Shown here piece by piece: positions 11,557 through 33,800 of a stretch of 64,000 bases of DNA. Both the position numbers and the translations under genes were made by a program. The stretch is from assembly GCA_963848295.1 (NCBI GenBank), contig CAWKDB010000010.1, positions 4,128,001-4,192,000 on the forward strand, given 5' to 3'. The notes under the pieces are model-generated. The model saw only the letters and a list, made by a program, of their open reading frames with translations, searched no databases and was not told where the DNA came from. Source of the stretch: an uncultured delta proteobacterium (GTDB taxonomy: Bacteria > Myxococcota_A > Polyangia > Haliangiales > Haliangiaceae). Each line of letters starts with the position of its first letter. Position 1 is the first letter of the stretch.

Positions 11557-11764
11557 GGCGGACACGCTAGCCGCGGCCGTCGTGCGTTGGCGCTTTCAGC
11601 CTCGAACAGCCGATGACACTCGAGTGCGCAGAGTGTGCAAATCGTAACTTCCCGGTCGCAGTGACCGGCGATCCGCATCGTGCGCCTCGGCGACAGCGCA
11701 CGACCCATCGTGCCCCACGCGAGGACACAGCGCGCTCGTGCGCGAGACCCTCTCGAGGTGCGCG

Positions 11765-16697: not shown

Positions 16698-17588
16698 CCT
16701 CGCATGACGTCAGGGCCGACGACCACGCATCGCAAGGCGCTCGCGACCTCTGAGGCCCGCATCGCGCTAACTCGTGCCGAGCGCGAAGGTCTTGCTCAAC
16801 ATCGCGACCAGCCGATCGAGCGTCGTGCGGCCGGGCAGCGGCAGCAGGCCGGCCTCGACGATCGCGCCGAGCTTCGCATCGCCGCGCCATGCGGTGCGCT
16901 GGCGGCTCATGATCGCGATCACGTTGGCGGTGTAGTCGCCGGTGAACGGGTGCTCGCCGGTGTGCCAGTAGGCGATCATCGCCGCCAGCGCGAACACGTC
17001 GGCCGCCGGTGTCGGCGGATCTTCGGGCCGTGCGAGCACCTCGGGCGCAAAGTACACGTGAGGGAAGCACAGCGGCACACCGTAGTCGGGCTTGGTCATC
17101 TTCGCGTGGAACACGTCGCAGCGCGGCGCGATGCCGGTCACGCGGTCACCGTCGATGTACACCAGCTCCGGGCGAAGGCCGCCGAGCACGATGCCGCGCG
17201 CATGTGCCGCCGCGACGACCTCGGCGACCGCGAGGCCGAGCCGAGCTGTCGTAGCCGCGTCCATCACCGTCGGGTGATCTGCGCTGGGGATGCCCGCAGG
17301 TTCGTCTTCGACCAGCCCGTCGTAGCGGGCCTCGCCGGTCGCGGTGACCGGGCCGATGTGCCGTAGCGCCGCAATCCCAGGCAGCTCGTAGCCGAGGCGC
17401 TGGCGGACCTGATCGAGTGGATCGCGTTGCGGCGTCCCGATCGAGATCAAGACGGAGGTCTGGCGCTCGCGATCGCGGCCGCGGTACAGCCCTCGGTCCG
17501 CGCCGCCGGCGAGCTCCTCGCGTAGCTCGTAGCGAGCGTGATCGAGTGTGGCACCTAGCGGGAGGTTGTCGCGCAGGAACGCTTCGCG
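16698..17588. repeat. ~890-bp direct repeat, copy 1 (pseudokinase-coding half plus ~70 bp past the stop)
   Basis: Near-identical to 21170-22059 (offset 4471-4472, one 1-nt indel in the 3' flank). Confidence 0.92.
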
Positions 17589-18245
17589 AAATGTCGCGGC
17601 GTCGCGCATGAGCTTGTCGATCGTGTCCGTCGAAACCGACAACTCGCCGCCGGTGTCTTCTCGCACGATCCGAAATCCAGTGCCAGCTCGCGACACGCGA
17701 ACCGTCGGATTGCCATGAACCTCCGCGATCCCGCCGGCTAGCGCCTCTCGGAGTGCGGATCCGGAGCGGGAGAGCAGCGCGTCGAGCAGGCACCGCGCAA
17801 CACCCTCCGGATCATTCGCAAGCGCAAATCCCCCGTCCTCGCTCACCTGGACAAACGGTGCTTCGATGGCCCCAAACAGGACCTCGAGAGCATCGTCGAC
17901 CTCGGGCACATCACCGCCGTAGTCGGCGTCTTCGTAGCGAAGCGTATAGTGCTTGCGAAGCCACGCGACGAAGTGGCGTGCTGGTTCGACCGGGGTGATT
18001 CGATACCAGATGCGAATCATCATCGGTGCTACCTCGACCCCGATGACCGTGCCGGGAAAGCGTGCAGGCTCGTCTGCCCTCGCGTGCAAGGCTGTCTCGA
18101 TCCCCGAGACACCGTAAGAGAGCATGAAGGTGTGAGGCGAAACTGGATCCCGGGCCGAGTAGCGCAGACTCACAATGTACTTCTCGACGGAAGTGACATC
18201 GAACTCGCGATGATCTGCGGTACGAAGAATGATGTCCTGAATCAC
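16767..18245 (-). CDS. Putative immunity protein fused to a pseudokinase domain, copy C
   Basis: 492 aa; GTG overlaps the TGA of a toxin-tip relic; kinase fold with HARGIVLGGLRPE (no HRD), YFAPE, ADVFALA. Confidence 0.8.
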   Translation of the reverse strand: MIQDIILRTADHREFDVTSVEKYIVSLRYSARDPVSPHTFMLSYGVSGIETALHARADEPARFPGTVIGVEVAPMMIRIWYRITPVEPARHFVAWLRKHYTLRYEDADYGGDVPEVDDALEVLFGAIEAPFVQVSEDGGFALANDPEGVARCLLDALLSRSGSALREALAGGIAEVHGNPTVRVSRAGTGFRIVREDTGGELSVSTDTIDKLMRDAATFREAFLRDNLPLGATLDHARYELREELAGGADRGLYRGRDRERQTSVLISIGTPQRDPLDQVRQRLGYELPGIAALRHIGPVTATGEARYDGLVEDEPAGIPSADHPTVMDAATTARLGLAVAEVVAAAHARGIVLGGLRPELVYIDGDRVTGIAPRCDVFHAKMTKPDYGVPLCFPHVYFAPEVLARPEDPPTPAADVFALAAMIAYWHTGEHPFTGDYTANVIAIMSRQRTAWRGDAKLGAIVEAGLLPLPGRTTLDRLVAMLSKTFALGTS

Positions 18246-18418
18246 GGAGCCTTCTTGTGACCGGCCGACATCACGGCGTCGTTGTAAGCATCAGCCTGCA
18301 CCTGAACTGCCACCGAGGCGAGCTTCTCGGAATCACCAAACGCAAGCTCCTCTCCGTTGCCAAGACGAAGCATGAACGTATGAGGCGCGATCGGGTCGGG
18401 TGCACCGAGACGCAGCTC
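18242..18418 (-). pseudogene. Chimeric relic: immunity-head fragment joined in frame to the last ~18 codons of a toxin tip
   Basis: Reads ELRLGAPDPIAPHTFMLRL...QADAYNDAVMSAGHKKAP*; 18372-18400 matches 22598-22626 at 28/29 nt; no start codon 5' of the homologous part. Confidence 0.75.
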
Positions 18419-18920
18419 ACGCGTTCGCTACCACCTGCGCGTACGTAGTCAGGTAGGACGCGAGTAACGTCGGGAGATCCCGAGCGGCGTCACTCGAGAT
18501 CAGGCCATAGCGCGCGCTCGTGTACGGACCGGTCGTGATCTCGGCGGGCATTCGAGCGACGACATCCTTCCTGCCGACGAGCCCGTAACCACGCTCCTGT
18601 TCGCGTCGCGTGCGCCATTGAAAGTAGCGTTGTTTCTCGACCGCAGCTGCCAGATTGTGAGACTCCACGCGCTTCATAATGCTCGATCGATCGGCGTCGA
18701 ACGCTACGATTCGCGGGCCCTGTTGCACGGGTGCGTCGGCGCGGAGCTCGAACACGATGACGTAGCCGGTCGCAGGAGCATCGGCGAGCATTCCCTCAAC
18801 GATCGGAACCTCGATCGCGAGCGCGTCTCCGACCGCCTTCGCGAGCTCGTCGACATGCCACGGCTGCTCGGCCACCGCCGCCGGGCGTGCGTTCACAGGA
18901 ACGAGAATGGTGACCTTCAT
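18417..18920 (-). CDS. Hypothetical protein, probable orphan immunity protein
   Basis: 167-aa ORF inside the toxin cassette array; no recognisable motif. Confidence 0.6.
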   Translation of the reverse strand: MKVTILVPVNARPAAVAEQPWHVDELAKAVGDALAIEVPIVEGMLADAPATGYVIVFELRADAPVQQGPRIVAFDADRSSIMKRVESHNLAAAVEKQRYFQWRTRREQERGYGLVGRKDVVARMPAEITTGPYTSARYGLISSDAARDLPTLLASYLTTYAQVVANA

Positions 18921-18926
18921 GAACGC

Positions 18927-19106
18927 CTACGGCTCCTTCGGGAAGCGCGCTACGTCGATGTCGTCCAGAAGACGTTCACACACGGTCAGCAATTCACGAT
19001 CGGGAAGCGGGTGCAATGCGATGGAAGCGAGGATTCGAGCGCGCGTCGTCGCATTGTTCGAGCGAAGCTTCTCGAGCCGATATAGCTGGTCATCTTCTTC
19101 GGTCAC
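18927..19106 (-). CDS. Short helical (HEAT-like) ORF, probable truncated immunity gene
   Basis: My translation (59 aa, not in the ORF track): MTEEDDQLYRLEKLRSNNATTRARILASIALHPLPDRELLTVCERLLDDIDVARFPKEP*. Confidence 0.45.
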   Translation of the reverse strand: MTEEDDQLYRLEKLRSNNATTRARILASIALHPLPDRELLTVCERLLDDIDVARFPKEP

Positions 19107-19201
19107 TGTGCAGTCTCGAGATCGTTACGGAAGTCGCGCCGTGTCGTCGCGGTTCACCAGATTAGAATTCGGCACGCCCGGCGGCACGACTATCGTCCAG
19201 T

Positions 19202-20689
19202 TCACGGTGCGTCGACGCGACCTACGAACCCGTCTTGCAGTGCGGTCAGCAGACCGTCGAGCGAAGCACGGCCAGGCATCGGCTTTAGCCCGGACTCGAC
19301 GATCGCGCCGAGCGCCGCATCGCCGCGCCATGGAGTGCGTTGGCGCGTGACGATCGCCATCACGTTCGCCGAGTACTCGCCGGTGAACGGATGGTTGCCG
19401 GTGTGCCAGAACGCGATCATCGCAGCGAGCGCGAACACGTCCGCGGCCGCGGTCGCGGGATCCTGCGGGCGTGCGAGCACCTCGGGCGCGAAGTAGATGT
19501 GCGGGAAGCACAGCGCGACGCCATGATCGGGCTTGGTCATCGAGGCGTGAAATAGGTCGCACCGCGGCGTGATGCCGACGACGCGATCGCCATCGAGGAA
19601 CACGAGCTCGGGACGCAGGCCTCCGAGCACCAAGCCGCGAGCGTGCGCCGCGGCGATAGTCTTGCCGACCGCGAGCCCGCGCTGCGCCGCCTCAGTGGCG
19701 CCGAGGTTCGGCCATCCCGTCGCGCGAACTCCTGGCGGCGGCTCCTCTTCGACGAGCCCGTCGTAGCGCGCCTCACCGGCGGAGGCGAGCGGCCCGATGT
19801 GAAGCAGCGCGGCAACGCCTGGCACCTCATAGGCAAGCCGCTGCTCGAGTTTGGCGACCGGCTCGCGCTGAGGCGTTCCGAGCGTGATCAGCACCGGCAC
19901 GTTGCGCTTCACGTCCCGCCCGCGATAGAGCCCGCGGTCCGGGCTACCGAACAGCTCGTCTTCGATCTCGAACCGCCCGCCGTCGAGCGTCAAACCCTTC
20001 GGAAAGTCCCTCAGCCGATAGTTGTTACGGACCTGCACCGCGGCGGCGAACAGCTGATCGATTTGCTCGACCGACATCGTCATCGCTTCGCCGATGTCAT
20101 CGCGCGCGATCCGCCACACGTCTCCGCTCCTCGTCGCGTGTAGCGAGCTATCGAACCGTACCTCGTCAGTCGAGCGCTTCGAGAGCTGGTCGTGCCACGC
20201 CGGGCCTTGGCTCTCGGAGAGCAACGCGTCGATCAGTGCCTTGGCGATCCCGACCGGGTCGTTGATGACCTCCAATCCATGCTCGTCGTACTGCGCCACC
20301 GAAGGCGGGTGGACCTCCCCGAACAGGCGTTCGAAGTTGGCATCGACGTCCGGGACCTCGCCGCCATAGTCGTCGTCAAAGAACCGAACTGGGTATCGTC
20401 CACGCAGCCAGGCAACGAAATGCCGCGCGGTCTCGACCTCCGAGCTCAGATAATGAATGCCGATTCGATGGCTGTGGACATCGAACAGGATCGATCCCGT
20501 CGGAAACTGATCTGAGTGAGCTACTCGTTCCGCAATCGCGTCGTCGAGCAGCTCCTGCGCATACATCGCGATAAACGTGTGCGCGTCATGCGGATCGCGC
20601 GCGACGAGTGGCAGCGCCGCCAGATAGGCCTCGACCTCGCCCACATCGAACTCCCCGGTGACCGGCTCGATCGCGATGTCCTGGATCAC
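19202..20689 (-). CDS. Putative immunity protein fused to a pseudokinase domain, copy B
   Basis: 495 aa; paralog of copies A and C over its full length; GTGA overlap with the orphan toxin tip; HARGLVLGGLRPE. Confidence 0.8.
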   Translation of the reverse strand: MIQDIAIEPVTGEFDVGEVEAYLAALPLVARDPHDAHTFIAMYAQELLDDAIAERVAHSDQFPTGSILFDVHSHRIGIHYLSSEVETARHFVAWLRGRYPVRFFDDDYGGEVPDVDANFERLFGEVHPPSVAQYDEHGLEVINDPVGIAKALIDALLSESQGPAWHDQLSKRSTDEVRFDSSLHATRSGDVWRIARDDIGEAMTMSVEQIDQLFAAAVQVRNNYRLRDFPKGLTLDGGRFEIEDELFGSPDRGLYRGRDVKRNVPVLITLGTPQREPVAKLEQRLAYEVPGVAALLHIGPLASAGEARYDGLVEEEPPPGVRATGWPNLGATEAAQRGLAVGKTIAAAHARGLVLGGLRPELVFLDGDRVVGITPRCDLFHASMTKPDHGVALCFPHIYFAPEVLARPQDPATAAADVFALAAMIAFWHTGNHPFTGEYSANVMAIVTRQRTPWRGDAALGAIVESGLKPMPGRASLDGLLTALQDGFVGRVDAP

Positions 20690-21093
20690 TGGCCCACCTT
20701 GTGCCCGGCGCTCATAACGTCGTCCTGGTATGCCCGGAATTGCGGCTTGTTCGTACCGGCATTGTAGGGGTTGTTCGTGTCGCCGGTTCCCTTCGGAACT
20801 GCGCGACCTTCCGCATCGACCTTGAACGCGACGCCATCCTGGCCGGGCGCGGGTGTCGCGGTCTTTACCTCGACGCTGTACATGACCTTACCGGCGTTCT
20901 CTCTGTCACCCTTCGGCTTGACGCGGATGAGTGTTCCATCCGTGAACGAGTAGACTGCCTGGTCCTGCTTTGCGGTTTTGGCCGGATCCGTCGGGTCACC
21001 GATGGGTTGGGTTGCTTGCAGCGCGTGCTGGTAGCTCAGGTCGGTAATTGACCAGCTCTTCGGCCGAGAAAATCCCAAGGTTGTTGGGGGCAT
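20686..21093 (-). CDS. Orphan toxin C-terminal tip (variant of the large DUF4157 protein's tip)
   Basis: DPTDPAK...FTDGTLIRVKPKGD...YSVEVKTATPA...FKVD..G..VPKG...NNPYN.GTNK...VMSAGH aligns with the large protein's tip; first ~25 aa unrelated. Confidence 0.8.
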   Translation of the reverse strand: MPPTTLGFSRPKSWSITDLSYQHALQATQPIGDPTDPAKTAKQDQAVYSFTDGTLIRVKPKGDRENAGKVMYSVEVKTATPAPGQDGVAFKVDAEGRAVPKGTGDTNNPYNAGTNKPQFRAYQDDVMSAGHKVGQ

Positions 21094-21169
21094 CGAGCAT
21101 TGCGTGGGAGATCAGGAGCCCCGAGCCATCATCGAGTTCGATGACAACACCCGCCTCGCGCGGTCTCCG

Positions 21170-22059
21170 CCTCGCATGACGTCAGGGCCGACGACCACGC
21201 ATCGCAAGGCGATCGCGACCTCGGAGCCCGCATCGCGCTAACTCGTGCCGAGCGCGAAGGTCTCGCTCAACATCGCGACCAGCCGATCGAGCGTCGTGCG
21301 GCCGGGCAACGGCAGCAGGCCGGACTCGACGATCGCACCGAGCTTCGCATCGCCGCGCCATGGCGTGCGCTGGCGGCTCATGATCGCGATCACATTGGCG
21401 GAGTAGTCGCCGGTGAACGGGTGCTCGCCGGTGTGCCAGTAGGCGATCATCGCCGCCAGCGCGAACACGTCGGCCGCGGGCGTCGGCGGATCTTCGGGCC
21501 GTGCGAGCACCTCGGGCGCGAAGTAGACGTGAGGGAAGCACAGCGGCACACCGTAGTCGGGCTTGGTCATCTTCGCGTGGAACACGTCGCAGCGCGGCGC
21601 GATGCCGGTCACGCGGTCACCGTCGATGTACACCAGCTCCGGGCGAAGGCCGCCGAGCACGATGCCGCGCGCATGTGCCGCGGCGACGACCTCGGCGACC
21701 GCGAGGCCGAGCCGAGCCGTCGTGGCCGCGCCCATCACCGTCGGGTGATCTGCGCTGGGGATGCCCGCAGGTTCGTCCTCGACCAGCCCGTCGTAGCGGG
21801 CCTCGCCGATCGCGGTGACCGGCCCGATGTGCCGTAGCGCCGCAATCCCAGGCAGCTCGTAGCCGAGGCGCTGGCGGACCTGATCGAGTGGATCGCGTTG
21901 CGGCGTCCCGATCGAGATCAAGACGGAGGTCTGGCGCTCGCGATCGCGGCCGCGGTACAGCCCTCGGTCCGCGCCGCCGGCGAGCTCCTCGCGCAACTCG
22001 TAGCGACCGTCATCGAGTGTGGCACCTAGCGGGAGGTGGTCGCGCAGGAACGCTTCGCG
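21170..22059. repeat. ~890-bp direct repeat, copy 2
   Basis: Near-identical to 16698-17588. Confidence 0.92.
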
Positions 22060-22716
22060 CAGCTGAGACGCGTCGCCGGCGAGTCGCTCGATCGTCTCCG
22101 GTGACAGCGTCAGCTCGCCGCGGTCATCGCTGCGAATCCGCCACCCCATACCGTCCCAGCTCGCAACAAGCCCACGCGCGATCTGGAGTGGCGCCTGGCC
22201 AGCGGCGACCGGTGGCTGTTGCAACTCGGCACCGCGCCCCGACAGCAGGGCTAGCACCAGCTCGTGCGCGATGTCGTCGGGATCGTTGATGAGCTCGAGC
22301 CCGTTCTCATCGAAGCTCGAGACCACCGGCGGATGAACCTTGCCGAACAGTAGCTCGAGCTTGTCGTCTACGTGTTCCGTGCGATCGCGACCGTAGTCGT
22401 TGTCGAGAACCTTCAGCGCGTAACGCTCGCGCAACCATTGAACGAAGCGCCTAGGCTCTTCGGTCCGGCTGGTCGAGTATCCGAGGGTGATCACCTGGGG
22501 GTGAACTGCGACGACGACGATCGGGCCTGGGAAGCCTGTAGCGCCACCCGTTCGCTCTGCGAGCGCCTCGTCGAGCACGTCTCGCGCATAGCCCAGAATG
22601 AACGTATGAGGTGCGATCGGGTCGGGCGCCGCCCACGCACGGCTCGTAAGGAATGTCTCGATCGCCGGGACATCGAACGTCCCGGTTAGCGGCTCTAGAG
22701 CGATATCAGTGATCAT
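21238..22716 (-). CDS. Putative cognate immunity protein fused to a pseudokinase domain, copy A
   Basis: 492 aa; ATG overlaps the TGA (22713-22715) of the toxin's displaced natural end. Confidence 0.82.
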   Translation of the reverse strand: MITDIALEPLTGTFDVPAIETFLTSRAWAAPDPIAPHTFILGYARDVLDEALAERTGGATGFPGPIVVVAVHPQVITLGYSTSRTEEPRRFVQWLRERYALKVLDNDYGRDRTEHVDDKLELLFGKVHPPVVSSFDENGLELINDPDDIAHELVLALLSGRGAELQQPPVAAGQAPLQIARGLVASWDGMGWRIRSDDRGELTLSPETIERLAGDASQLREAFLRDHLPLGATLDDGRYELREELAGGADRGLYRGRDRERQTSVLISIGTPQRDPLDQVRQRLGYELPGIAALRHIGPVTAIGEARYDGLVEDEPAGIPSADHPTVMGAATTARLGLAVAEVVAAAHARGIVLGGLRPELVYIDGDRVTGIAPRCDVFHAKMTKPDYGVPLCFPHVYFAPEVLARPEDPPTPAADVFALAAMIAYWHTGEHPFTGDYSANVIAIMSRQRTPWRGDAKLGAIVESGLLPLPGRTTLDRLVAMLSETFALGTS

Positions 22717-25700
22717 GGTCCAGCCCGGTGGCCGGCGCCCATGACGGCCGACTCGTATGCATCGTACTGCGTCTTGTTCGTTCCGTCGTTGTACGGGTTG
22801 TTCGCGCGTCGCGTACTCGAGCCCCGCGCAGGATCAGGGCGCGACCGTTGTCTGGCACCCACGCGTTCGCCGTCTTCCGAGTTCCCGTTGCGTCCTCGAC
22901 CTGAATCGCTCCTCGAAAGCGGATAACGAAATCCCAGCCGAGCGTCTGCAGGAACCGATACAGCTTCTGATCGCCGAAGCCGCGATCCGCCAGCACTGTG
23001 ATCTTCACGTCGGGCGCGACGCAGTCGTGCAGCCGTTCGAGCAACCGATACTCGTGGTCATTCCGCTTGTTCTTGAGCGTGGTCTTGCTCACCGTCATCC
23101 AGATCAACGGGGTCGCCCGCCCATGGCTGGTGATCAGGTAGCCCGCCAGCGTCGCGTGGTCGTCGCCATCGAACTCTGTCCAGTCGAGCGCGACGACGAT
23201 CTCCTTGCGCTCTGCGACGACAAACTGGGCCCACGGTCGGAACAACGTCCACACGTCGATGCCCGGGTTTCCGAGCAAACGATCGGTCTGCTCACCCCGG
23301 ACGTCATCCGGACCCTTCGGTACGGGATCACCCTGTATATCCACTTTGAACGAAACCCCCGCTTGATCGGATGCCGGCGTCGCAGTCTTGACCTCGACAC
23401 TGTATGTGAGCTTGCCCGGATTGTTATTCTTGTCACCCTTTGGCTTGATGCGGATCAGGGTCCCATCGGTGAAGTCATAGGCGACCTGGTCCTGCATCTT
23501 CGTGGGGTCCGTAGGATCCTTCGTGGGATCGATGGCCCGCGTCGCCGCACCTCCTGCAACCTCGAGGTCTAGCAAAGCTTCCATCTCTGCCTGGGTCTTG
23601 CCGTCGAGCTGAGACGCGAGGCGCTTCGCCGCCCCGCCCGCCGTTCCGCTGTCATAGTTCGTGAGCCGATTCTTCAGGTCCGTCGTCGGTCCTTTGAAGG
23701 CCTTTCGACTGGCCATCTCTGTAGTCGCACGATTCGTAGCAGCGGTCTGTGCCTCGTTCTTTGCAGCGGCCTTTGCAGCCTTGTCAGCGGCCTTGCCCGC
23801 GAGTTTGATCGCGGTGTCCGACTTGGCCCCGGGCTTCGCCATCTCGCTGTCGTAGGTGGCAACCCCTGCAGCGCGCGTTGCTTCTCGCACGCGCACGGCG
23901 GCGTCGGGAGGAATGTCCTGGTACTTGGCGAGCTCGCGCCCCGAGTGGCTATTGGCCGTGTCGAAGATCCGCGTCGCATCGCCTGGTGGAATGTTGCCGG
24001 CCTTGGTCTGCAGGTCGGTCGGACCCGCTAGTCCGGCTTCGTCACCGGTTACCAGGCCCGCGGGCGGCTCGTTGAATATCACGACGCTACCGAGAGCCTC
24101 GTGGTCGACCGTATAGACGTCGCCGCTCCATACGAAGTTGCCGTGCTCATCGGTCGCGATCATTCGCGACTTGAAGACACCGACGTTCTTGTTCCCGGCC
24201 CAGGATCCGATGCGCTCGGGCTGCAGGATCTTGATCTGGACGAGCGGCTCCTTGGCGCCGGGCGTCGGGTTGCCGATCCTATCACCACCCTTGGAGGCGT
24301 ACGGGGTCTGAACTGTGTGCTCGGCGAGCTTGTTGCGCGCGCAGAACGCGACGTCGGCTGCCGACGGGAACACGTTGACCTTGTTGAGCTCGCCGTTACG
24401 ACCGCCGCCCTGCACGAGCTCTCCGAAGCTCGTCGACCCACCCTTGATCATCTTGCCGGCAGTCAACGGATGCGAGTGAGCGACGGCGCGCACGCCCGGG
24501 AACCCGGCCCAATCGACCGCCCCGGGCTCGCCGCGGATGATGAAGAACTCGCCGTTCGCCTCGCCGATGCCCCATTCGACGCTGCGCGTATCGAAGTGGC
24601 GCGGCGCTTCCATCCCGATCGCTTGAAACGCGGCGGGATCTCCGGCGGCGAGCTTGGCGAGCACCGCTTGGGCAGTCGACTCGTTCGCTAGCTTCGTACC
24701 GATCGCGACGTTGGTCCGCGTCAGCACGGCGGACGGATCCATCGTCGGGGTGATCTCGACCGCCGGCGTCGCAGCCTGGTCCGGCGTGGCGGGGGCGGTA
24801 CCCTTCGTGTCGATCGCGTCGATGAAGGCTTGCTGGTCCTTGGCCGAGAGCTCGCCCAGATGCGAACGTGCGGCCGCGATGTCAGCCGCGTTGTTCTGTT
24901 CGACCGCATTCTTGAGCGCGAGCAGCGCAGTGCGTTGCTGTTCGGTGAGCGAGTAGATCTGCGCGTCGTCGAGCTTCGCTCGCCTCGCGACCTCGACGAT
25001 CTGCTTGCCCGTCGGTGTGATCGCCCAATCGGGCACGGCCTCGGCGACCAGGATCGGCGTCGCGTTGTCGCCCTTCGGCGTGATTCGCCAGGTCTGCGCG
25101 CCGGTTCCCGGATCGCGCTCGCCTTCCGGAACGACGGTCGCGCCTTCGGCGGTCTCGAGCGCGCGCATCCGCGCGACCTCGGCGGCCCCGGCCTCGAAGA
25201 AGTTCGGACCGCGCTGCTTCATCGTCATCGCCATCTCGGCGCCGAGCGAGTTCGCGCGCAGGTCGTTCAACGTCTTCATCTGCTTGTCGAGCACGTCACC
25301 GTTGATGCCCTGCGCCTTGGCACCTTTCTTGTCGTTATTCGCCGCGTCTTTGAGCGCCTCGAGCGCGTCCATCTCCTTGTCGATCTGCGCTTGGTCTCTG
25401 TGAGCCGCCTCGATCACATCCGCGGCCGATACCTTGCCGCCCCTCGTCACCCTGTCCTGCATCACGAGGTTGGCCTTGCGCTCGGTGGCCCAACCATCGA
25501 GTGCGAGCTGCCATTTCTTGCCCGCAAACGCGGCGCTGACCTCGAGCTTCTTGATCGGCGACTCCATCAGCCGGCCACCGATCGAGAAGATCACGGCCTG
25601 TGACACCGCCATGATGATCGCGTCATGCTGCTCCTGCTCGGTCATCGGCTTCGCGCCGAACATCTGTTTGACCTTCGCCTCGACCCAGCCGGTCATGATC

Positions 25701-28700
25701 CCGATGCCGCTGTTGATCATCGACTGACCGATCGCGTCGCCTGCGGTCGCGGCGAACTTCGCGAGCTTACCGGCCTCTTCGCCGGCCTTGAACAACCTCG
25801 ACAGCCCGAGCGCCTTGACGCCCATGCCGACGCCGCGCATCGCGCCGAACATCACCAGGTTCTTCGCGAAGTCGCTGAGCAGCGCACCGATGCTGTGATC
25901 CCTCGAGAACGCCACGTTCGACAGCACCGTGAATGTCGCGGTCTCGGCGAGGAAGCCGGCCACCGCGGCCGTGTTGCGCGCGACGCCGATGCCGCCGACC
26001 ACGACCTCCGTGCCATCGACGACCAGCGCTGTGCCGCCGAGCGTGGCCGACAGCGCCGAACCCGCGCCCATGCTGACGAGCGTGATCGCGACCATCGCGA
26101 TGATCATCACGATCATCTGGTCTTCGTGGATCGTCTTGAGCTCGTCCTGGACCTCCTTGAGGAAGCCCTGGAACTTCGTGTCCGCGGCGAGCGTCTCGAA
26201 GTCGGTGCGGGCCTTGTCCATCGCTTTCTTGTCGCCGGCCTCGCCCTTCTTGATCAGCGCGTAGATCGCCTTCCACTGCGCGTAGTAGTCCTTCGCTCGC
26301 ACCTTGAGCGCGGTGGCGTCTCGCCGGTCTCCGCCGAGCGTCGTCCACGAGTCCACCGCCTGATCGAGCGAGGTCCACTCGTGCTCGAGCTGGGCGGCCT
26401 GCGCGGCGACCTGCGATTCGAAGATCAAGTTGCGGGCGTCTTGCGTCGTGCCCGCCGCTTTCGGATCGGCCTTGGACGGGTCACCGAGCATCTGCGACAT
26501 CATCTGCGCGCGCAGCTGTCCGAGTTGCTTGCGCTCCTCGATCTCGCGCTTGCCCATACCGTCGGTGTCGAAGTCTTGCTTCGCGTCGGTCGTATCGCTC
26601 GCCTGATACGACGCCGACTGCGGCGTGCTGAGCCCGCGCTCGAGGATCTCGATCTCCAGCGTCAGCGTGTGACGCGACGCCGCGGCGATCATCTGCGCGG
26701 CACTGTCGACGAGGTCACACGACAGCAGCGCGTTCGCCCACATCTCGGCGTCCTGGCGCAGCGGATGATCCGGCGGCAGCCCGTCGGTCGTGCCCTTGTC
26801 GGCCGAATCCTTGTTGGCGGCTTTGTAGGCGTCGAGTCGCGCGCCATCCCCCGCGAGCCCGGCGCCGGCGCGCGAGATGATGTCGGACTGCTTCTTGGAC
26901 TGAGCGTCCCACTTCGCGACGTCGCCATCGTCTTGGGTCTCGAGCTGGGAGACCCGGTGCTCGATCATCGTCGCCGCCGTGATGACCTTCTCCTCGAGCT
27001 GGAACTGCTGCGCGATCGGCGCGATCGAGGAGCGCAGCACGTTGGCGTTCACGCGCATCTCCTCGAGGATGCGCTCGCGCGGTCGCGCGTCCTTGGGATC
27101 GATCGGGCCCGCTTGCGACAACGCAGCCTCGGCTGCCTCGGGGCCGTTGGAGCGCGCGAGCTGTGCGGCGCGGCCGATCGGATTCTCGACCTCGGCGAAC
27201 GTGCCACGCGTATCGTCCTCGAGGCCGTACAGCGGGTGCGCGACCTGGAGCCGGAAGCTCTCCGTCGATGGCAAGCCGAGCGCGAGCACGATCTCCTCGG
27301 GCGTCGCCGTCGCCGGGCTGATCAGCCGGTGCCAGCCGGGCAGGTCTTTGACATCCTCGAGCTGGATGTTCTGAGACGAGTTGAGCAGCTTCGGCGGGCC
27401 GGCGAGCTCGGGATGCCGCTCCTTGAACTTGACCTGATCGATCCCGACCATGTTGCCCTTCGCGAGGGCGGTGATGACGAGCGGATCGATCGGATGCGAC
27501 ACGAGGACGTCGTCGGGACCGGGCTCCTTGCCGTTCGCGATCTTCGCTTGCGCGTAGCGCGGGATCTCGCGCTGCAGCGATTCCGCGATCCGGCGCGCGA
27601 GCGCGTTGCCGACCTCGGTGCCGACGCTCGGGAAGTACGAGTCGGGCCCCTTCGACACCGGCGATCCGCCGTCGACGCTCGCTGGCTCTACCTCGGTCAC
27701 GACGCGCGACTCTGCGACCAGCTTGCCGATCAGCTCGGGGCGCACGAGCGAATCGAGGTCGGTCTTCGCGGTGATCTGTGCAGCCATCGCGGTGGGAAAC
27801 TGCGTGACACCGGCCGCCGTCCACGTCACCGTGTCGTCGTAGGTCGCGAACGGCAGGGCGCGCAGTTGATCGGCAGCGCCGGCGGCGATCTGCACCAGGT
27901 ACTGCTCGTAGTAGGCCTGCGTCGTCGGCCCGGGGTCCACCGTGCCCGCTTGGCAGCGCTGCAGTTGCAGCCCGGTGCGCATGACGTCGCCGACCGCGCC
28001 CGCGAAGTTGCCCAGGCGCTCGAGCCCGGCGTCGCGCTCGGCGCCCTGATCCTCCGCGCCGATCGGCTGGCGTCGAGCGTCCGGATCCTTGTGCGCGTCG
28101 GCTTGCTGCGCGGTGTGCGCGAGCTCGTGCGCGAGCAACGCGTCGCCCGCCACCCCGGACGTCGGTGCGCTCGAGCCCATGACGACGTTCTGCCCGACGG
28201 CGAACGCGGCGGCCCCGTGCTCGCTCGCCATCCCGGCCGCGGTCGGCCCGGTGTGGATCTTCGCGCCCGAGACGTCGGCGCCGACGACCGCCGACATCCG
28301 CTGCGCGGTCGCGTGATCGAGCGAACGGCCCGGGCCGAGCTCGGCCTCCATCCCGTCGAGCGACTTGCGATTGACGATCGGCTGCGCGTCGCTCGCGGAC
28401 CGCGGAGCTTGATTCGTCTCCGCGGCTTGCGCGGCCGCTGGATCGGCGGCGGCGAGCTCGGGTGGCAGCTTGTGGGTCTGCTTCCAGTACTGGACGCCGG
28501 CGCGGACGCGCGCGACGAGCAACGGGACCAGCGCCTCGGCACCGGTGGCGGTGCGCGCCTCGGGGACCCAGCGCTGGATCAAGGTCACCGTCGACTTCGC
28601 GGGCAGCGCCGCGTACTTCGCGAAGTATTGCGCGATGTACGGACACGCGACCGCCGAGCCGATCATGCCGAGCTCGGCATCCGCCGCCGCGGTGACGAAC

Positions 28701-29308
28701 GGCCTCAGCCGCTCGAGAAACGAGCTCTTCAGCATCTGCCCGGGGGCGAGCGTGCCGCCGTCGACGAGAAGCTGTTGCACCGCCGAGGCCCCGGCCGTGA
28801 CCTGCGCCGCGACCTGATCGGCGTGTTGTTCCGCCGCCGAGCCCTCGGCACCGACCGCGACCTTGCGCTGCGGCGCCGGTGTCGCGCCTCGCTGCTGCGC
28901 GACGTGCGTGAGCTCGTGCGCCATCAACGCTTGGTCGTGCTCGCTCTCGCCGGGCCCCAGGAAGATGTCGTTGCCGTACGCGAACGCGCGCGCGCGCATC
29001 GCGTGCACCGTTTTTTGCGACAGCGGATCTTTGTGGAACCGCGCACCGCTGACATCCACGCCGGTGTCCGCCCGCACCAGGGCCGCGAGGTCCGCGGGTA
29101 CGGGCTGTCCCTCGCCCCGCTTCTCCACCGCGAGCGTCGCGGCGTCTTCGAGATCGTTCGGGGCGCGGGCGGCGCCGAGGTCGCGCCACAACTGGGCCTC
29201 GCGGCGCGCGTGATCGGGCGCGACGCCATCGCTTCGCGGGCTCCGTCGGGCCTCGGCGACCGGGCGCTCGGCGAGCTCGGGACGATGAAGTCTCTCGCGC
29301 TCGCTCAT
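22706..29308 (-). CDS. Large DUF4157 (eCIS-core) polymorphic toxin, tip interrupted by a transposase fragment
   Basis: Two DUF4157 units (ARAFAYGNDIF...LMAHELTHVAQQ; AAAFAVGQNVV...LLAHELAHTAQQ), LQRC motif, hydrophobic helices, JAB-like E..HSHP..SAAD, C-terminal tip; reconstructed length ~2032 aa ending at 22713. Confidence 0.85.
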   Translation of the reverse strand: MSERERLHRPELAERPVAEARRSPRSDGVAPDHARREAQLWRDLGAARAPNDLEDAATLAVEKRGEGQPVPADLAALVRADTGVDVSGARFHKDPLSQKTVHAMRARAFAYGNDIFLGPGESEHDQALMAHELTHVAQQRGATPAPQRKVAVGAEGSAAEQHADQVAAQVTAGASAVQQLLVDGGTLAPGQMLKSSFLERLRPFVTAAADAELGMIGSAVACPYIAQYFAKYAALPAKSTVTLIQRWVPEARTATGAEALVPLLVARVRAGVQYWKQTHKLPPELAAADPAAAQAAETNQAPRSASDAQPIVNRKSLDGMEAELGPGRSLDHATAQRMSAVVGADVSGAKIHTGPTAAGMASEHGAAAFAVGQNVVMGSSAPTSGVAGDALLAHELAHTAQQADAHKDPDARRQPIGAEDQGAERDAGLERLGNFAGAVGDVMRTGLQLQRCQAGTVDPGPTTQAYYEQYLVQIAAGAADQLRALPFATYDDTVTWTAAGVTQFPTAMAAQITAKTDLDSLVRPELIGKLVAESRVVTEVEPASVDGGSPVSKGPDSYFPSVGTEVGNALARRIAESLQREIPRYAQAKIANGKEPGPDDVLVSHPIDPLVITALAKGNMVGIDQVKFKERHPELAGPPKLLNSSQNIQLEDVKDLPGWHRLISPATATPEEIVLALGLPSTESFRLQVAHPLYGLEDDTRGTFAEVENPIGRAAQLARSNGPEAAEAALSQAGPIDPKDARPRERILEEMRVNANVLRSSIAPIAQQFQLEEKVITAATMIEHRVSQLETQDDGDVAKWDAQSKKQSDIISRAGAGLAGDGARLDAYKAANKDSADKGTTDGLPPDHPLRQDAEMWANALLSCDLVDSAAQMIAAASRHTLTLEIEILERGLSTPQSASYQASDTTDAKQDFDTDGMGKREIEERKQLGQLRAQMMSQMLGDPSKADPKAAGTTQDARNLIFESQVAAQAAQLEHEWTSLDQAVDSWTTLGGDRRDATALKVRAKDYYAQWKAIYALIKKGEAGDKKAMDKARTDFETLAADTKFQGFLKEVQDELKTIHEDQMIVMIIAMVAITLVSMGAGSALSATLGGTALVVDGTEVVVGGIGVARNTAAVAGFLAETATFTVLSNVAFSRDHSIGALLSDFAKNLVMFGAMRGVGMGVKALGLSRLFKAGEEAGKLAKFAATAGDAIGQSMINSGIGIMTGWVEAKVKQMFGAKPMTEQEQHDAIIMAVSQAVIFSIGGRLMESPIKKLEVSAAFAGKKWQLALDGWATERKANLVMQDRVTRGGKVSAADVIEAAHRDQAQIDKEMDALEALKDAANNDKKGAKAQGINGDVLDKQMKTLNDLRANSLGAEMAMTMKQRGPNFFEAGAAEVARMRALETAEGATVVPEGERDPGTGAQTWRITPKGDNATPILVAEAVPDWAITPTGKQIVEVARRAKLDDAQIYSLTEQQRTALLALKNAVEQNNAADIAAARSHLGELSAKDQQAFIDAIDTKGTAPATPDQAATPAVEITPTMDPSAVLTRTNVAIGTKLANESTAQAVLAKLAAGDPAAFQAIGMEAPRHFDTRSVEWGIGEANGEFFIIRGEPGAVDWAGFPGVRAVAHSHPLTAGKMIKGGSTSFGELVQGGGRNGELNKVNVFPSAADVAFCARNKLAEHTVQTPYASKGGDRIGNPTPGAKEPLVQIKILQPERIGSWAGNKNVGVFKSRMIATDEHGNFVWSGDVYTVDHEALGSVVIFNEPPAGLVTGDEAGLAGPTDLQTKAGNIPPGDATRIFDTANSHSGRELAKYQDIPPDAAVRVREATRAAGVATYDSEMAKPGAKSDTAIKLAGKAADKAAKAAAKNEAQTAATNRATTEMASRKAFKGPTTDLKNRLTNYDSGTAGGAAKRLASQLDGKTQAEMEALLDLEVAGGAATRAIDPTKDPTDPTKMQDQVAYDFTDGTLIRIKPKGDKNNNPGKLTYSVEVKTATPASDQAGVSFKVDIQGDPVPKGPDDVRGEQTDRLLGNPGIDVWTLFRPWAQFVVAERKEIVVALDWTEFDGDDHATLAGYLITSHGRATPLIWMTVSKTTLKNKRNDHEYRLLERLHDCVAPDVKITVLADRGFGDQKLYRFLQTLGWDFVIRFRGAIQVEDATGTRKTANAWVPDNGRALILRGARVRDARTTRTTTERTRRSTMHTSRPSWAPATGLDHDH
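22713..22802 (-). other. Displaced natural C-terminus of the toxin (out of frame after the insertion)
   Basis: NNPYNDGTNKTQYDAYESAVMGAGHRAGP*, homologous to NNPYNAGTNKPQFRAYQDDVMSAGHKVGQ* of the orphan tip. Confidence 0.85.
22803..23299 (-). mobile_element. Internal fragment (497 bp) of an IS4-family transposase gene, no IS ends
   Basis: QTDRLLGNPGIDVW...VVALDWTEFD...HGRATPLIW...VLADRGFGD...FVIRFRG (first two Asp of the DDE triad); no terminal IRs or target duplication seen. Confidence 0.8.
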
Positions 29309-29535: not shown

Positions 29536-29841
29536 ATGAAGATCAGGAAGAACCGAGTGTCCAAGCGCACCGGCGTCGCGGTCGACGCCGCCCTGGCAGC
29601 CGCGGCGCGGGGCGCGGCCCCGACCTCCGACGACGCAGCGGCCTTACCGAACGACGAGGATCGTCGCGAGACCGACGTCATCGGAAAGGCCGCCGGCGTC
29701 ATGATCGCAGACCGCAAGCCACTCGGCGGGCCCGACATGATCGAGCGACGGGATGCCCATCGTTGGGAGCTCGATCCCGCGTCGGCCGACGCGGCCGCCG
29801 CGGAGGATTCGTCACCACCGCCGTCCTCGGGGCAACGCTGA
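29536..29841 (+). CDS. Hypothetical protein
   Basis: 101-aa ORF with RBS; conserved-looking RRDAHRWELDPASAD motif; TGATG coupling to the next gene. Confidence 0.65.
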   Translation: MKIRKNRVSKRTGVAVDAALAAAARGAAPTSDDAAALPNDEDRRETDVIGKAAGVMIADRKPLGGPDMIERRDAHRWELDPASADAAAAEDSSPPPSSGQR

Positions 29842-30624
29842 TGCTGCGCCTCTTGGAGGACGAGCTGCGAGGGTTTCAGATCGACGCCAGGGACGGCATC
29901 ATCGGTCACGTCGTCGGCGTGTACTTCGACGACGATGCGTGGACGGTCCGCTACCTCGTGGTCAATACCGGCAGCTGGCTCGACGCGCGCGAGGTACTGA
30001 TCTCGCCGATCAGCCTGAGTGCGACCGACGGCCTGAGACGCACGCTCGTGGCGCGCTTGACCAAGAAGCAGGTCGAGGACAGTCCGTCGATCGATCTCGC
30101 GAAGCCCGTCTCCCGCCAGCAGGAGTCGGAGGTTAGCGCCCATTACGGCTGGCCTACGTACTGGAACACCGGTCTATGGGAGAGCCACGTTCCCGAGACG
30201 ATGGCGGTGATGGAAGCGACCGCCGAACGAACCGCCACCTCCCCGCACCGACGGCGATCCTCATCTGAGAAGCAGTCGCGAGGTGATCGGGTATCACCTC
30301 CATGCGATCGACGGCACGTTGGGGCACGTCGAGGATCTCGCCATCGACGACGAGACCTGGACGGTTCGCTACCTGTCGGTGGCCACCTCGAGCTGGTGGC
30401 CCGGCGGGCACGTCCTGATCTCGCCGCGCTGGATCCGTGCGGTGCGATGGACCGAGCGCAGGGTCGACGTCGCGGTGACCAGAGACGTGATCGAGCACAG
30501 CCCGACGTGGACTCATACCTATCCGATCACGCAGGACTACGAGGACAGGCTGCTCGATTACTACCGCAAGCGCGAAGCCTGGTCGATCGATCGTCGCTCG
30601 ATCGAGCCAAGCCCGCCTCGCTGA
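29841..30624 (+). pseudogene. Tandem PRC-barrel domain protein, frameshifted at ~30210-30245 (possibly a sequencing error)
   Basis: Two PRC units (ARDGIIGHV..YFDDDAWTVRYLVV; DPHLRSSREVIGYHLHAIDGTLGHVED...WTVRYL) in different frames. Confidence 0.8.
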
Positions 30625-30680
30625 TGGCCTCATCGACCATCTCCATACCGTCGCGTTACGCTATCGCCAATAGCGTGTAG

Positions 30681-30857: not shown

Positions 30858-33800
30858 TTGGCCCGCGCCGCGCGATCCTCCGGTCGCACTTCACTTGAAG
30901 TGCGATCTTCAAGTAACGATCGCCTCGACCACCCCCCCGGTTCCAGCTGCGGCACAATCACCTCGTTGCCCGACAGCGGTCGTGTAGTTGGCGAGTTCGT
31001 CCTCGAAGAGCAGATCGGGGGCGGTGGCGGCGGAAGTGTGTTCCGCGCGTACCAACCCGTGTTGCAGCGCAACGCGGTCGTAAAACTCCTTCACGCGAAC
31101 GGAGAACAGGCGCTCGTCGATCAGTTCCTCCGCGAGGCGCGCCTCGCCTCGCGGCTGGACCATCCGTTCGCGGCGCACGTCTACGCGTTCGGCGCCGAAG
31201 CCGACGGCCTGCTGTGGATCGCGATGGAGATCGTCCGTGGAACGCCGCTGTCGGAGTTGTTAGCCGGCGGACCCTTGGACCGCGGTCTCGCGTTCGTCGA
31301 GCGGGTCTGTGAGGTCGTGCAGTCGACGCACGAGCTCGGCATCATCCACGGCGATCTGAAGCCATCGAACATCATGGTGATCTCGCGGGTGGGCAGCTTG
31401 TTCCCCAAGCTGATCGACTTCGGAATCGCCCGCGACTCGAGTGATCGCACGAGCGGCGGGCTCGGCACGCCGGCGTACATGGCGCCCGAACAATGGGTGT
31501 CCGGCCAGACGCTCACACCGGCGACCGACGTCTACGCGCTCGGCGCACTCACGTTCGAGATCCTCACCGGCAACCCGCCCTTCACGGGGCGCTCGAGGAT
31601 GGAGCTCGCGACCCACCATGCGCGCAGTGCGCCGCCGACGCTGCCGGCGGAATTTCCGAGCCGCATCAGCGCCGCGATCACGAAGGCGATGGCGAAGCAG
31701 CCGGCCGAGCGTTTTGCCAGTGCGGTCGAGTTCGCGCGGGCGTTGAACGCAGGCTCCGAGGAGGCGTTGGCCGCGATCCACGTGCCGCGAATCGACGAGC
31801 TGACACGCGACGATGCGCTGCTCGGCGCCCCGGAGCCGATCGCGGAGGCCGTCGCGCGCCTCGATGCGGCGAGCGATCCCGAGAGCGCTTATGCAGCGAT
31901 GCGGCGGCTAGTCGAGACCATCGCCCAGTACATCGGTGTCGTCGCCCTCGGTTGCCGCGCGCGCGTGCGCGCCGGAGCGATCGCGAGCGAACACACGACC
32001 GCACTGCTCCGCGAGCTCCGCACCAGCGGACTCGACGCGCGCGGTTGGTGGCGGTTGGCCCGCGAGCTCGTGCGTCCGTTCGCGGTGATTCGCGACGTTC
32101 ATCCCGTGCCGGAGCTCGTCGGGCTATTCTTCGACGGCCGCGCCGAGATCATGACTGCGCTCGACCTGGTGTTTGCCGAGGGTGGCTCGGCCATCGCACC
32201 CAATCGCGAGGTCGCCGAGGCCGCGCTCGCGCGGATCGTGCCGATGGTCGGCGTCGCGCTGCGCACGCTCCGCAGGTTCGACGACTATCGCCTCGTCGTC
32301 CCGATGCGCGCGCGTGCTCAGCTGTGGGTCGGCGTTCGCCGGCGAGACCGACTGGTCGTGGATCTCGGCCGCCAGCTCGAACGCCCTGCGCTCGTCGGAC
32401 GCGAGAACACGATCGTGGTGGACCTCGGCGACGTGGTGACGGTCGCCGAGCCTGCTCCTGGCGCGCCACGCGAGCTGTTCTTCCTCGACGGCCCTGGTCG
32501 CAGCGGCGCTCGGTTTCGCGCGATCCGTCGGAGCTCGAGCACGACGTGGCCGGGACATGGGAGCGGATGGGCATCGCGGCGGACGCGGGAAGCGACGACG
32601 GGCGGGCCGAGGTCGAGTCGCCGTACATGGGACTCTCGACGTTCACCGAGAAGCAGTCCGCGTTGTTCTTCGGGCGCGAACGCGAGCTCGAAGAGATGCT
32701 CAATCGGCTGCAAACGCAAGCGTTCCTCTGCGTCGTCGGTCCTTCGGGCGCGGGCAAGAGCTCGTTCGTGCAAGCGGGTCTGTTCCCGGCGCTCGGCGCC
32801 GAGTGGCGGACAATCGTGCTCCGGCCCGGCCCGTTGCCGGTGACGAACCTCGCGGCGCAGATCGCGGCGGCAACCGGCCGGCCGTTGTCGCCGGACCAGC
32901 TGCGAGAACACCCGAGCACGCTCGTCGCGCATCTCGAGCCGTTGCTCGCGCGCTCGCACGTGCTCCTGTTCGTCGACCAGTTCGAGGAGCTGTTCACCCT
33001 GTCGGCCGATCCAGCTGGGCAGGAGGCGTTCGCGTCGGCACTGATGGAGACCGCGTCGGCCAACGATCGACTCCGCGTGGTCGTGACGTTGCGCGACGAT
33101 TTTCTCGTTCGCGCGGCGCAACTGGCGGCGCTGCGCGCGATCGGCGCATCTCTCCAGATCCTGTCGACGCCAATGCCCGACAACCTGATGCGCATCCTGG
33201 TCGAACCCGCGCGACGCGGCGGCTACGCATTCGAGGACGACGAGTTCCCCACCGAGATCGTGTCCGAGGTCTCGGGGCAGCCCGGCGCGCTCGCGCTATT
33301 GTCGTTCACCGCGTCGAGGCTATGGGAGCTGCGCGATCGCCAGGCCAAACAACTCACGCGCCGCGCCTATCGCGGCCTCGGCGGTGTCGGAGGTGCGCTA
33401 GCGCAGCACGCCGAATCCGTGCTGGGCGGCATGCCGGACGCACAGCAACGCGTGGTGCGCGAGCTGTTCCGTCACCTCGTGACAGCGGAAGGCACCCGCG
33501 CGGTGCTCAGCCGCGACGAGTTGCTCCAAGTCGGCGGCGGGCCCGTGGCGAACCCGGTCGTGGAGGCGCTGATCAACGAGCGCCTGTTGACGGCGATGGA
33601 GAGCCCCGGCGGCGAGAGCATCGAGGTCGTCCACGAGACGCTTATCATCAGCTGGCCTCGGCTCGTCCAATGGCGATCGCAAGATGCCGAGAACGCGCGG
33701 CTTCGCGACCAGCTGCGGGCAGCCGCACGGCAATGGGACGACCGCGGACGGTCGCGCGGGATGTTGTGGCGCGCGGATGCTGTTACCGAGTATCGGCTGT

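Follow-up and report, generated by a model that had tools for sequence, protein, structure and literature searches.

A candidate two-warhead toxin locus with a fused head-pseudokinase partner in an uncultured member of the Haliangiaceae

The locus described here raises the question of what three paralogous partner genes, arrayed behind a large toxin gene with two DUF4157 domains, are kept for. It lies in the window, the whole 64,000-nucleotide stretch of DNA that was analyzed (G000:C10:4128001-4192000; GenBank assembly GCA_963848295.1), which belongs to the 7.8-Mb, 85% complete genome (G000) of an uncultured delta proteobacterium of the Haliangiaceae. The first-pass annotation, made from the sequence of the window, had proposed one toxin family, with each partner as a whole acting as immunity to the C-terminal tip of the toxin. 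That proposal was borne out in part: the C-terminal pseudokinase of the partner was found to track a JAB-like domain inside the toxin, a feature absent from the annotation, and the N-terminal head was found to track the tip. In our judgement the locus is somewhat more likely than its alternatives taken together to encode an antibacterial polymorphic toxin, loaded into an extracellular contractile injection system (eCIS), that carries two warheads and is matched by a two-part immunity protein.

The layout itself is of an already known kind. As had been annotated, two DUF4157 domains were present, both found as eCIS_core, and the three partners, expected at 492-495 aa, measured 492, 495 and 492 aa. 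Each tip stop overlapped a partner start by 4 nt (ATGA at 22713-16, GTGA at 20686-89 and GTGA at 18242-45), and the tips ended as noted in AVMGAGHRAGP, DVMSAGHKVGQ and AVMSAGHKKAP before the stop. The main elements are as follows (window positions; ORF, open reading frame; IS, insertion sequence).

22713..29308, minus strand: toxin gene, ~2,030 aa without the transposase piece, assembled as a 2,200-aa ORF (22706-29308)
28883..29104, minus strand: eCIS_core (DUF4157) domain 1, by domain search
28097..28321, minus strand: eCIS_core (DUF4157) domain 2, by domain search
24029..24718, minus strand: JAB/JAMM-like domain, aa ~1531-1760, by conserved motif in 52 aligned sequences
23300..23587, minus strand: 5' part of tip A, an unnamed C-terminal toxin domain
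22803..23299, minus strand: 497-nt fragment from within a DDE transposase gene, with neither IS ends nor a target duplication
22713..22802, minus strand: 3' part of tip A, with the conserved His and the stop overlapping partner A
21238..22716, minus strand: partner A, 492 aa (head 22327-22716, middle segment, pseudokinase 21238-22041)
20686..21093, minus strand: tip B, orphan cassette, 5'-truncated 135-aa ORF, 64% identical to tip A
19202..20689, minus strand: partner B, 495 aa (head 20300-20689, middle segment, pseudokinase 19229-20014)
18242..18289, minus strand: tip C remnant, ~16 codons
16767..18245, minus strand: partner C, 492 aa, effectively an orphan (head 17856-18245, middle segment, pseudokinase)

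The first 225 residues of the partners were variable and the rest was kinase-like. Partner A was 72% identical to partner C overall, partner B was 53-55% identical to either, and the three heads were 42-46% identical to one another. The tips, which had been annotated as three equivalent versions, proved unequal. Tip A is full; tip B aligned to positions 14-125 of the 127 positions of the tip model and lacks the upstream helical part of the family; and tip C was like tip B over just 59 nt, partner start included. With tip B truncated and tip C a remnant, only tip A can belong to a full toxin, and the B and C cassettes would be spare immunity.

With respect to delivery, DUF4157 is given as a marker of eCIS effectors in its own right in the available text of PMC11297309. 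An eCIS operon with gp19 tube genes and Pvc16_N was found on contig C2 near 927-933 kb, and a search of the 85% complete genome for the sheath of a type VI secretion system (VipB) did not find one. Close toxin homologues are from Kofleriaceae or Myxococcales bacterium according to their source records, which suggests that the host is a myxobacterium. More gp19 tube-like genes were seen beyond the C2 operon, at G000:C10:72025-72882 and C10:1532847-1533224.

The pseudokinase and the JAB-like domain

The JAB-like domain was matched in 30 of the 137 other genomes of the host's family, a tally that counts one unpublished genome, G010. Loci were fetched for 52 of 55 hits, from 28 genomes, with G000, G010 and one weak partial hit omitted. 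E1578, G1593, H1611, H1613 and D1652 were invariant in all 52 aligned sequences, and S1649 and H1664 were present in 51. The motif order is E, HxH, S, D, with a spacer of ~35 residues between HxH and S. As this matches the E, H[ST]H, S, D signature of Tox-JAB-2 given in the available text of PMC3482391, the domain is called JAB-like, on its motif. With Tox-JAB-2 (DUF4329) and Tox-JAB-1, as described in that text, it shares these residues, the position in a toxin and the coupled downstream gene; it differs in its length of ~200 aa, the long spacer before the Ser, an extra conserved His and presumed eCIS delivery, and its partner is a pseudokinase rather than Imm-NTF2-2 or Imm65. None of 44 members hit DUF4329 or Prok-JAB in Pfam, and hhalign comparison with DUF4329 (6 sequences) and Prok-JAB (29 sequences) returned probabilities of 3% and 0.3%. 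The two known families themselves reached only 36% against each other, so this profile comparison had little sensitivity, and its global mode was uninformative.

Of the 52 toxins, 14 terminate no more than 46 residues after the domain and 38 carry it internally, just upstream of an exchangeable tip. The internal-domain toxins bear tips of 25 different clusters. Six of the 34 of these tips that were scanned had Pfam matches, including CdiA_C twice and WHH, so the slot behind the JAB-like domain holds known toxins. A paralogous eCIS_core toxin in the same genome (G000:C2:478042-484446), 43% identical over ~1,490 aa, has a different unnamed C-terminal region followed by a coupled 192-aa gene, and is without both the JAB-like domain and the pseudokinase.

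The partner tail aligned over the whole kinase domain to PknA (E 2e-20), and 24 of 45 pseudokinase members had a Pkinase match. Compared with Hanks-type Ser/Thr kinases such as PknA and PknB, the tail is encoded as a toxin partner and has its catalytic residues replaced: in the family consensus the beta-3 Lys is T, the HRD Asp is G and DFG is PR, with the hinge Glu and an APE-like motif retained. The family keeps invariant residues of its own. When the non-kinase parts of the pseudokinase genes were searched against Pfam, nothing was matched except pentapeptide repeats in one of 24. At L086:12143-12805 a pseudokinase following pentapeptide repeats in one gene was observed upstream of a JAB-like toxin.

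In 45 of the 52 JAB-like loci the toxin gene was followed on its own strand by a pseudokinase gene; of the remaining seven, two were at contig ends, two had the pseudokinase upstream and three had none nearby. Where the toxin ends in the JAB-like domain, the pseudokinase started 11-95 nt past the stop in 13 of 14 cases, the fourteenth being at a contig end. Tip-only loci had no pseudokinase (0/19, with flanks of varying length). Out of sample, a draw of 331 genomes gave three JAB-like hits in three other families, and all three had a pseudokinase downstream. When the tail was used as a single query, with 19 candidates scored per genome, 15 of 27 strong hits outside G000 lay within ~6 kb downstream of a JAB-like hit and two lay upstream. 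Distances of the JAB-like domain and the pseudokinase co-varied over 42 pairs (rho 0.55, null maximum 0.195) and over 27 within-genome paralogue pairs (rho 0.70), which is weak support, since linkage alone can produce co-varying distances.

The behavior of the two domains when the tip changes was seen in genome G004, where the same kind of toxin body had a 61-63% identical JAB-like domain, the tip was a different one with a separate small gene, and the pseudokinase stayed without the head. At L016:292-6737 (G004:C226) the same toxin body was observed with a tip that resembles a kinase on visual inspection and is followed by a 179-aa gene of its own, and on the opposite strand of G004:C226 there is a convergent tip-head fusion. 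Taken with the gene context, we hold it rather more probable than not that the JAB-like domain acts as a second, zinc-dependent toxin and that the pseudokinase binds and blocks it. An extension of this, that the JAB-like enzyme attacks the kinase fold, namely the Hanks-type kinases of rival myxobacteria, and that the dead kinase confers immunity as a decoy substrate, is in our view quite unlikely.

The tip and the head

Searching with tip B as the query matched 144 cluster representatives. In 136 of 145 proteins the tip domain was C-terminal, with no more than 15 residues after it. It was carried by 19 of the 137 other genomes of the host's family. Among the long tip hosts (43 of 51 scanned), eCIS_core was found in 11 and annexin in one, the latter a Myxococcus xanthus protein; PT-TG was found in one of 66 shorter members. 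A pattern scan of the genome contigs with tip B gave no locus, and with another query it gave four rows with one true tip locus, a duplicate that was excluded from all counts. Neither Pfam nor NCBIfam has a name for the tip family, and the toxin domains and the partner had no match to the Ntox or Imm families of Pfam.

The near-invariant residues of the tip are D52, G53, R57, K59, G62, D63, S73, E75, F90, K91, P100, K101, P109 and H131. The structure model, which leaves out the upstream helices, had a predicted local distance difference test score (pLDDT) of 96 and consists of five strands and a C-terminal helix. R57/K59, S73/E75 and A89/K91 alternate along adjacent strands, an arrangement which, in the model, suggests one catalytic face closed by H131. 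We think it probable that the tip is a nuclease, and with the same confidence that it would cut nucleic acid by means of R57, K59, S73, E75, K91 and H131 on one face of the sheet.

With respect to fold relatives, Foldseek returned nothing at E up to 0.001 for either the tip or the head, all ESM Atlas matches were under 0.9, and no structure among the Foldseek top 1,000 for the tip reached a Z of at least 5 upon re-alignment. Among 48,161 chains, the sole match of the tip model at a Z of at least 5 was PT7(Bc) (PDB 8owu; Z 5.8, root-mean-square deviation 2.2, 64 aligned of 76 residues), with the next row at Z 4.0; PT7 was not among the Foldseek rows listed for the tip. Like the tip, PT7 is a small polymorphic toxin tip. 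It is described as a DNase in the available part of 10.1101/2021.10.19.465003, and rRNase activity is also reported in the available part of PMC13675652. It differs from the tip in being 76 aa long and LXG-linked, the two are 11% identical with no sequence match, and the catalytic D37/H47 of PT7 could not be mapped onto the tip. The BECR and BECR-like RNase toxins, as presented in the available text of 10.64898/2026.08.28.747851 and 10.64898/2026.09.18.752725, have in common with the tip a helical region followed by a beta-meander and conserved R, K, E and H; no BECR member was among the 50 fold matches listed for the tip, which is a weak test given a model without the upstream helices.

A likeness of the tip to colicin E3 had been noticed by eye but found no support, as five E3-type sequences scored inside the shuffled range. 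Also set aside were matches to Tcp10_C in 17 of 66 members, which were below the cut-off and covered a short hairpin, and a match to Ntox37 in one of 66 members at E 0.016.

Among relatives, a homologue of the 125-aa head opened the gene after the tip in all 23 tip copies, at 21 loci. As the original head model had been built from those genes, heads were rescored with a model that excluded rows more than 40% identical, and all 26 scored 28-127 bits. Tip and head distances co-varied over 19 pairs (rho 0.65, null maximum 0.46). Prediction of the complex of tip B, which is without the upstream helices, and head B gave 0.26 and 0.30 against a mark of 0.32, which counts neither for nor against their binding. 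Arrays of multiple tip-head pairs occurred in G463 and G548. At several loci the head also forms a gene of its own, 126-135 aa long, and at others it is joined to different tails; a search for stand-alone heads gave one fragment. The head was modeled with a pLDDT of 93 as a common alpha/beta fold; its best fold matches, SirA (Z 7.3), Med18 and ZipA, were set aside as reflecting just this common arrangement. From the gene context, it is very likely that the head binds and blocks the tip.

The layout of toxin, coupled immunity gene and orphan cassettes that the annotation had recognized is thus upheld by the C-terminal position of the tip (136/145), the varied delivery domains in front of it and the head behind every tip (23/23). 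On the further point of whether partner homologues occur mostly without tip-bearing genes, the two parts of the partner diverged: this was not so for the head, which followed the tip in every tip copy examined, and it was so for the pseudokinase, which was mostly seen without this tip.

Other domains were observed behind the head. A second unnamed domain of ~125 aa (GFF.EL...DG.Y.WP.DL.YY) is often fused to it (L036:2280-2657, L029, L044, L052 and others) and lies between head and pseudokinase in G016:C405; it had no Pfam or NCBIfam match and is possibly another immunity domain. At L037, L040, L043 and L030 the head was followed by yet another kind of tail, which has an HSSG motif, and at L048 the head is present twice.

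Tip A is interrupted in the assembled sequence by the 497-nt transposase piece, so that the ORF runs into it and reaches 2,200 aa instead of the ~2,030 aa annotated. Four other copies of the piece in the genome are each embedded in longer IS sequence. The copy in the window is 3 nt shorter than three copies to which it is 99.4% identical, with single-base gaps close to both ends. In sequencing run X1, which may be the source sample (23 of 25 aligned records with 99% identity or more), a single contig passes directly from 22802 to 23300 and skips the piece, at a depth of 2.8 and with 41 nt on the short side; coverage at this junction was too low in runs X2-X4. Those loose ends bordering the piece that were listed for X1 lead on into IS rather than toxin sequence. 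Very probably the piece is an assembly artefact or reflects a mixed population, and as the X1 contig joins the two sides, the toxin is probably ~2,030 aa long in reality.

Competing explanations and known systems

According to the two-warhead explanation, the toxin would be loaded into the eCIS and injected into competing bacteria, inside which two enzymes, the JAB-like domain and the tip, would act. The producer would be guarded by one translationally coupled protein with one domain per warhead. Tip and head would be exchanged jointly while the toxin body on one side and the pseudokinase tail on the other stay constant, and partners B and C would have been gained as spare immunity alleles by recombination through near-identical tails. 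Partners A and C have tails that are 97% identical and form direct repeats on either side of a ~4.5-kb block of orphan cassettes. The G+C content of third codon positions (GC3) was 0.69-0.74 in tips and heads, 0.82-0.87 in the tails and 0.84-0.89 in the toxin body. The lower GC3 of tips and heads, together with the direct repeats, indicates that the tail is likely a recombination arm that lets head alleles accumulate.

A number of observations weigh against this explanation. Every role assigned rests on gene context. The JAB assignment was made by motif, with ~35 residues between HxH and the Ser, and the domain had no match in Pfam, NCBIfam or PDB. Three of the 52 JAB-like toxins are without a nearby pseudokinase and two have it upstream; 10 of the 27 strong pseudokinase hits had no JAB-like domain on the contig or DNA fetched; and nine loci hold ten pseudokinases without a JAB-like domain, two of them head fusions, which argues against a strict link. 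Like partner C, such pseudokinases could be orphans. The survey of 52 loci relied on a pseudokinase model built from those very loci, linked genes can co-vary without binding, and related loci are not independent. For the tip, the Z of 5.8 to PT7 is under the typical chance-best level for that library, a Z below 8 may denote a common arrangement, and the PT7 chain was sought at E up to 10 with one sequence and two profiles without a match. The toxin gene on C10 also lies outside the eCIS operon on C2.

The main rival account, which we consider unlikely, allows for one warhead: the JAB-like domain would be a protease for processing or delivery, by which the tip is released, and it would have the pseudokinase as a chaperone, an adaptor or a safety catch during loading. 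Processing proteases usually sit just upstream of the tip in polymorphic toxins, which is where the JAB-like domain is found in 38 of the 52 toxins, and for these internal domains the co-occurrence data fit equally well. A pseudokinase is moreover described as a component of type VII secretion in the available part of PMC9600267. This account is opposed by the 14 toxins that end within 46 residues of the domain and have nothing to release, 13 of them with the pseudokinase as the next gene, and by the majority of tip toxins, which do without JAB-like domain and pseudokinase alike. If instead the whole partner shielded against the tip, the pseudokinase would be a passenger or a mere recombination anchor; the repeated tails flanking the orphan cassettes and the difference in GC3 between heads or tips and tails would suit this, as would two head-pseudokinase fusions for which neither tip nor JAB-like domain was found. 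We regard it as improbable, given that the pseudokinase is missing from all 19 tip-only loci, follows the JAB-like domain whatever the tip and retains its own invariant residues.

A very improbable account, in our assessment, has the JAB-like domain acting on eukaryotes such as fungi or amoebae, for example as an effector of deubiquitinase type, with the pseudokinase as a co-delivered regulator. According to the available text of PMC3482391, JAB domains are peptidases of ubiquitin-like proteins and many eCIS toxins are without immunity genes and may target distant organisms. In the same text, however, the JAB toxins that come with immunity genes are argued to be interbacterial and possibly nucleases. 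A tightly coupled downstream partner, moreover, marks self-protection. That the locus is decaying, with tip A truly broken by the transposase fragment and the array a relic retained for immunity only, is extremely improbable. The insert is present in the assembled sequence, tips B and C are truncated and its bypass was seen in that single low-depth contig with its short overhang, yet the insert has neither IS ends nor target duplication, shows single-base gaps near both ends, and the loose ends shown at its borders lead into IS sequence rather than toxin.

When the two-warhead explanation is set beside known systems, the polymorphic toxins of the Photorhabdus virulence cassette secretion system (PVC-SS/eCIS) are among the closest: as described in the available text of PMC3482391 (Zhang et al. 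2012), they share the PVC-metallopeptidase (eCIS_core) N-terminus, the exchangeable C-terminus, the coupled gene and the orphan cassettes, and many PVC toxins are without immunity genes. The present locus differs in having two candidate enzymes in one chain and a partner in which two parts are fused. No pairing of a JAB-like toxin with a pseudokinase, and no such two-by-two design, was found in full-text literature, a search mostly outside subscription papers, and the supplementary family tables of PMC3482391 and of the BECR and PT preprints may list the domains.

The locus defines two unnamed toxin-partner pairs. A pseudokinase family with a JAMM-type toxin domain as its only steady neighbour would point to a new job for bacterial pseudokinases, and what the JAB domains of bacterial toxins cut, for which a nuclease activity was proposed in 2012 (PMC3482391, available text), becomes testable. 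The natural toxins that end in the JAB-like domain offer a clean two-gene assay, and the occurrence of the tip family in Myxococcus xanthus offers a tractable host. Should the decoy idea be true, the locus would represent an interbacterial toxin against Ser/Thr kinase signalling that is neutralised by substrate mimicry, with the kinase-attacking domain in tandem with a swappable nuclease tip and one fused two-part immunity protein for both.

Remaining features of the window

The other elements within or overlapping the array are given below.

18924..19202, minus strand: small, stop-broken ORF, coupled to partner B at its end and without a paralogue in the genome
18417..18920, minus strand: 167-aa ORF, not matching any known family and without a paralogue in the genome
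18369-18403: 35-nt scrap, 91% identical to head A sequence, preceding the tip C remnant
16758..17590: direct repeat of the partner A tail (21229-22061), 808/833 nt identical, 4,471 nt apart

The 167-aa ORF is possibly an unrelated orphan immunity gene.

Several genes near the array were also observed. A CDC48-like AAA ATPase with a long N-terminal part is encoded at 12262-14217 (plus strand), 2.5 kb from the array and distant from the eCIS operon; it is putatively of the kind seen at eCIS loci (Afp15-like). A pepsin-like, eukaryotic-type aspartyl protease with a lipoprotein-like N-terminus is encoded at 10219-11565 (minus strand), and on the plus strand at 29763-30680 a PRC-barrel gene is seemingly split across two frames. 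At 30858-35662 (plus strand) two overlapping ORFs in different frames, one for a kinase and one for an nSTAND1-WD40 protein, resemble one frameshifted gene, the frameshift possibly being another assembly error.

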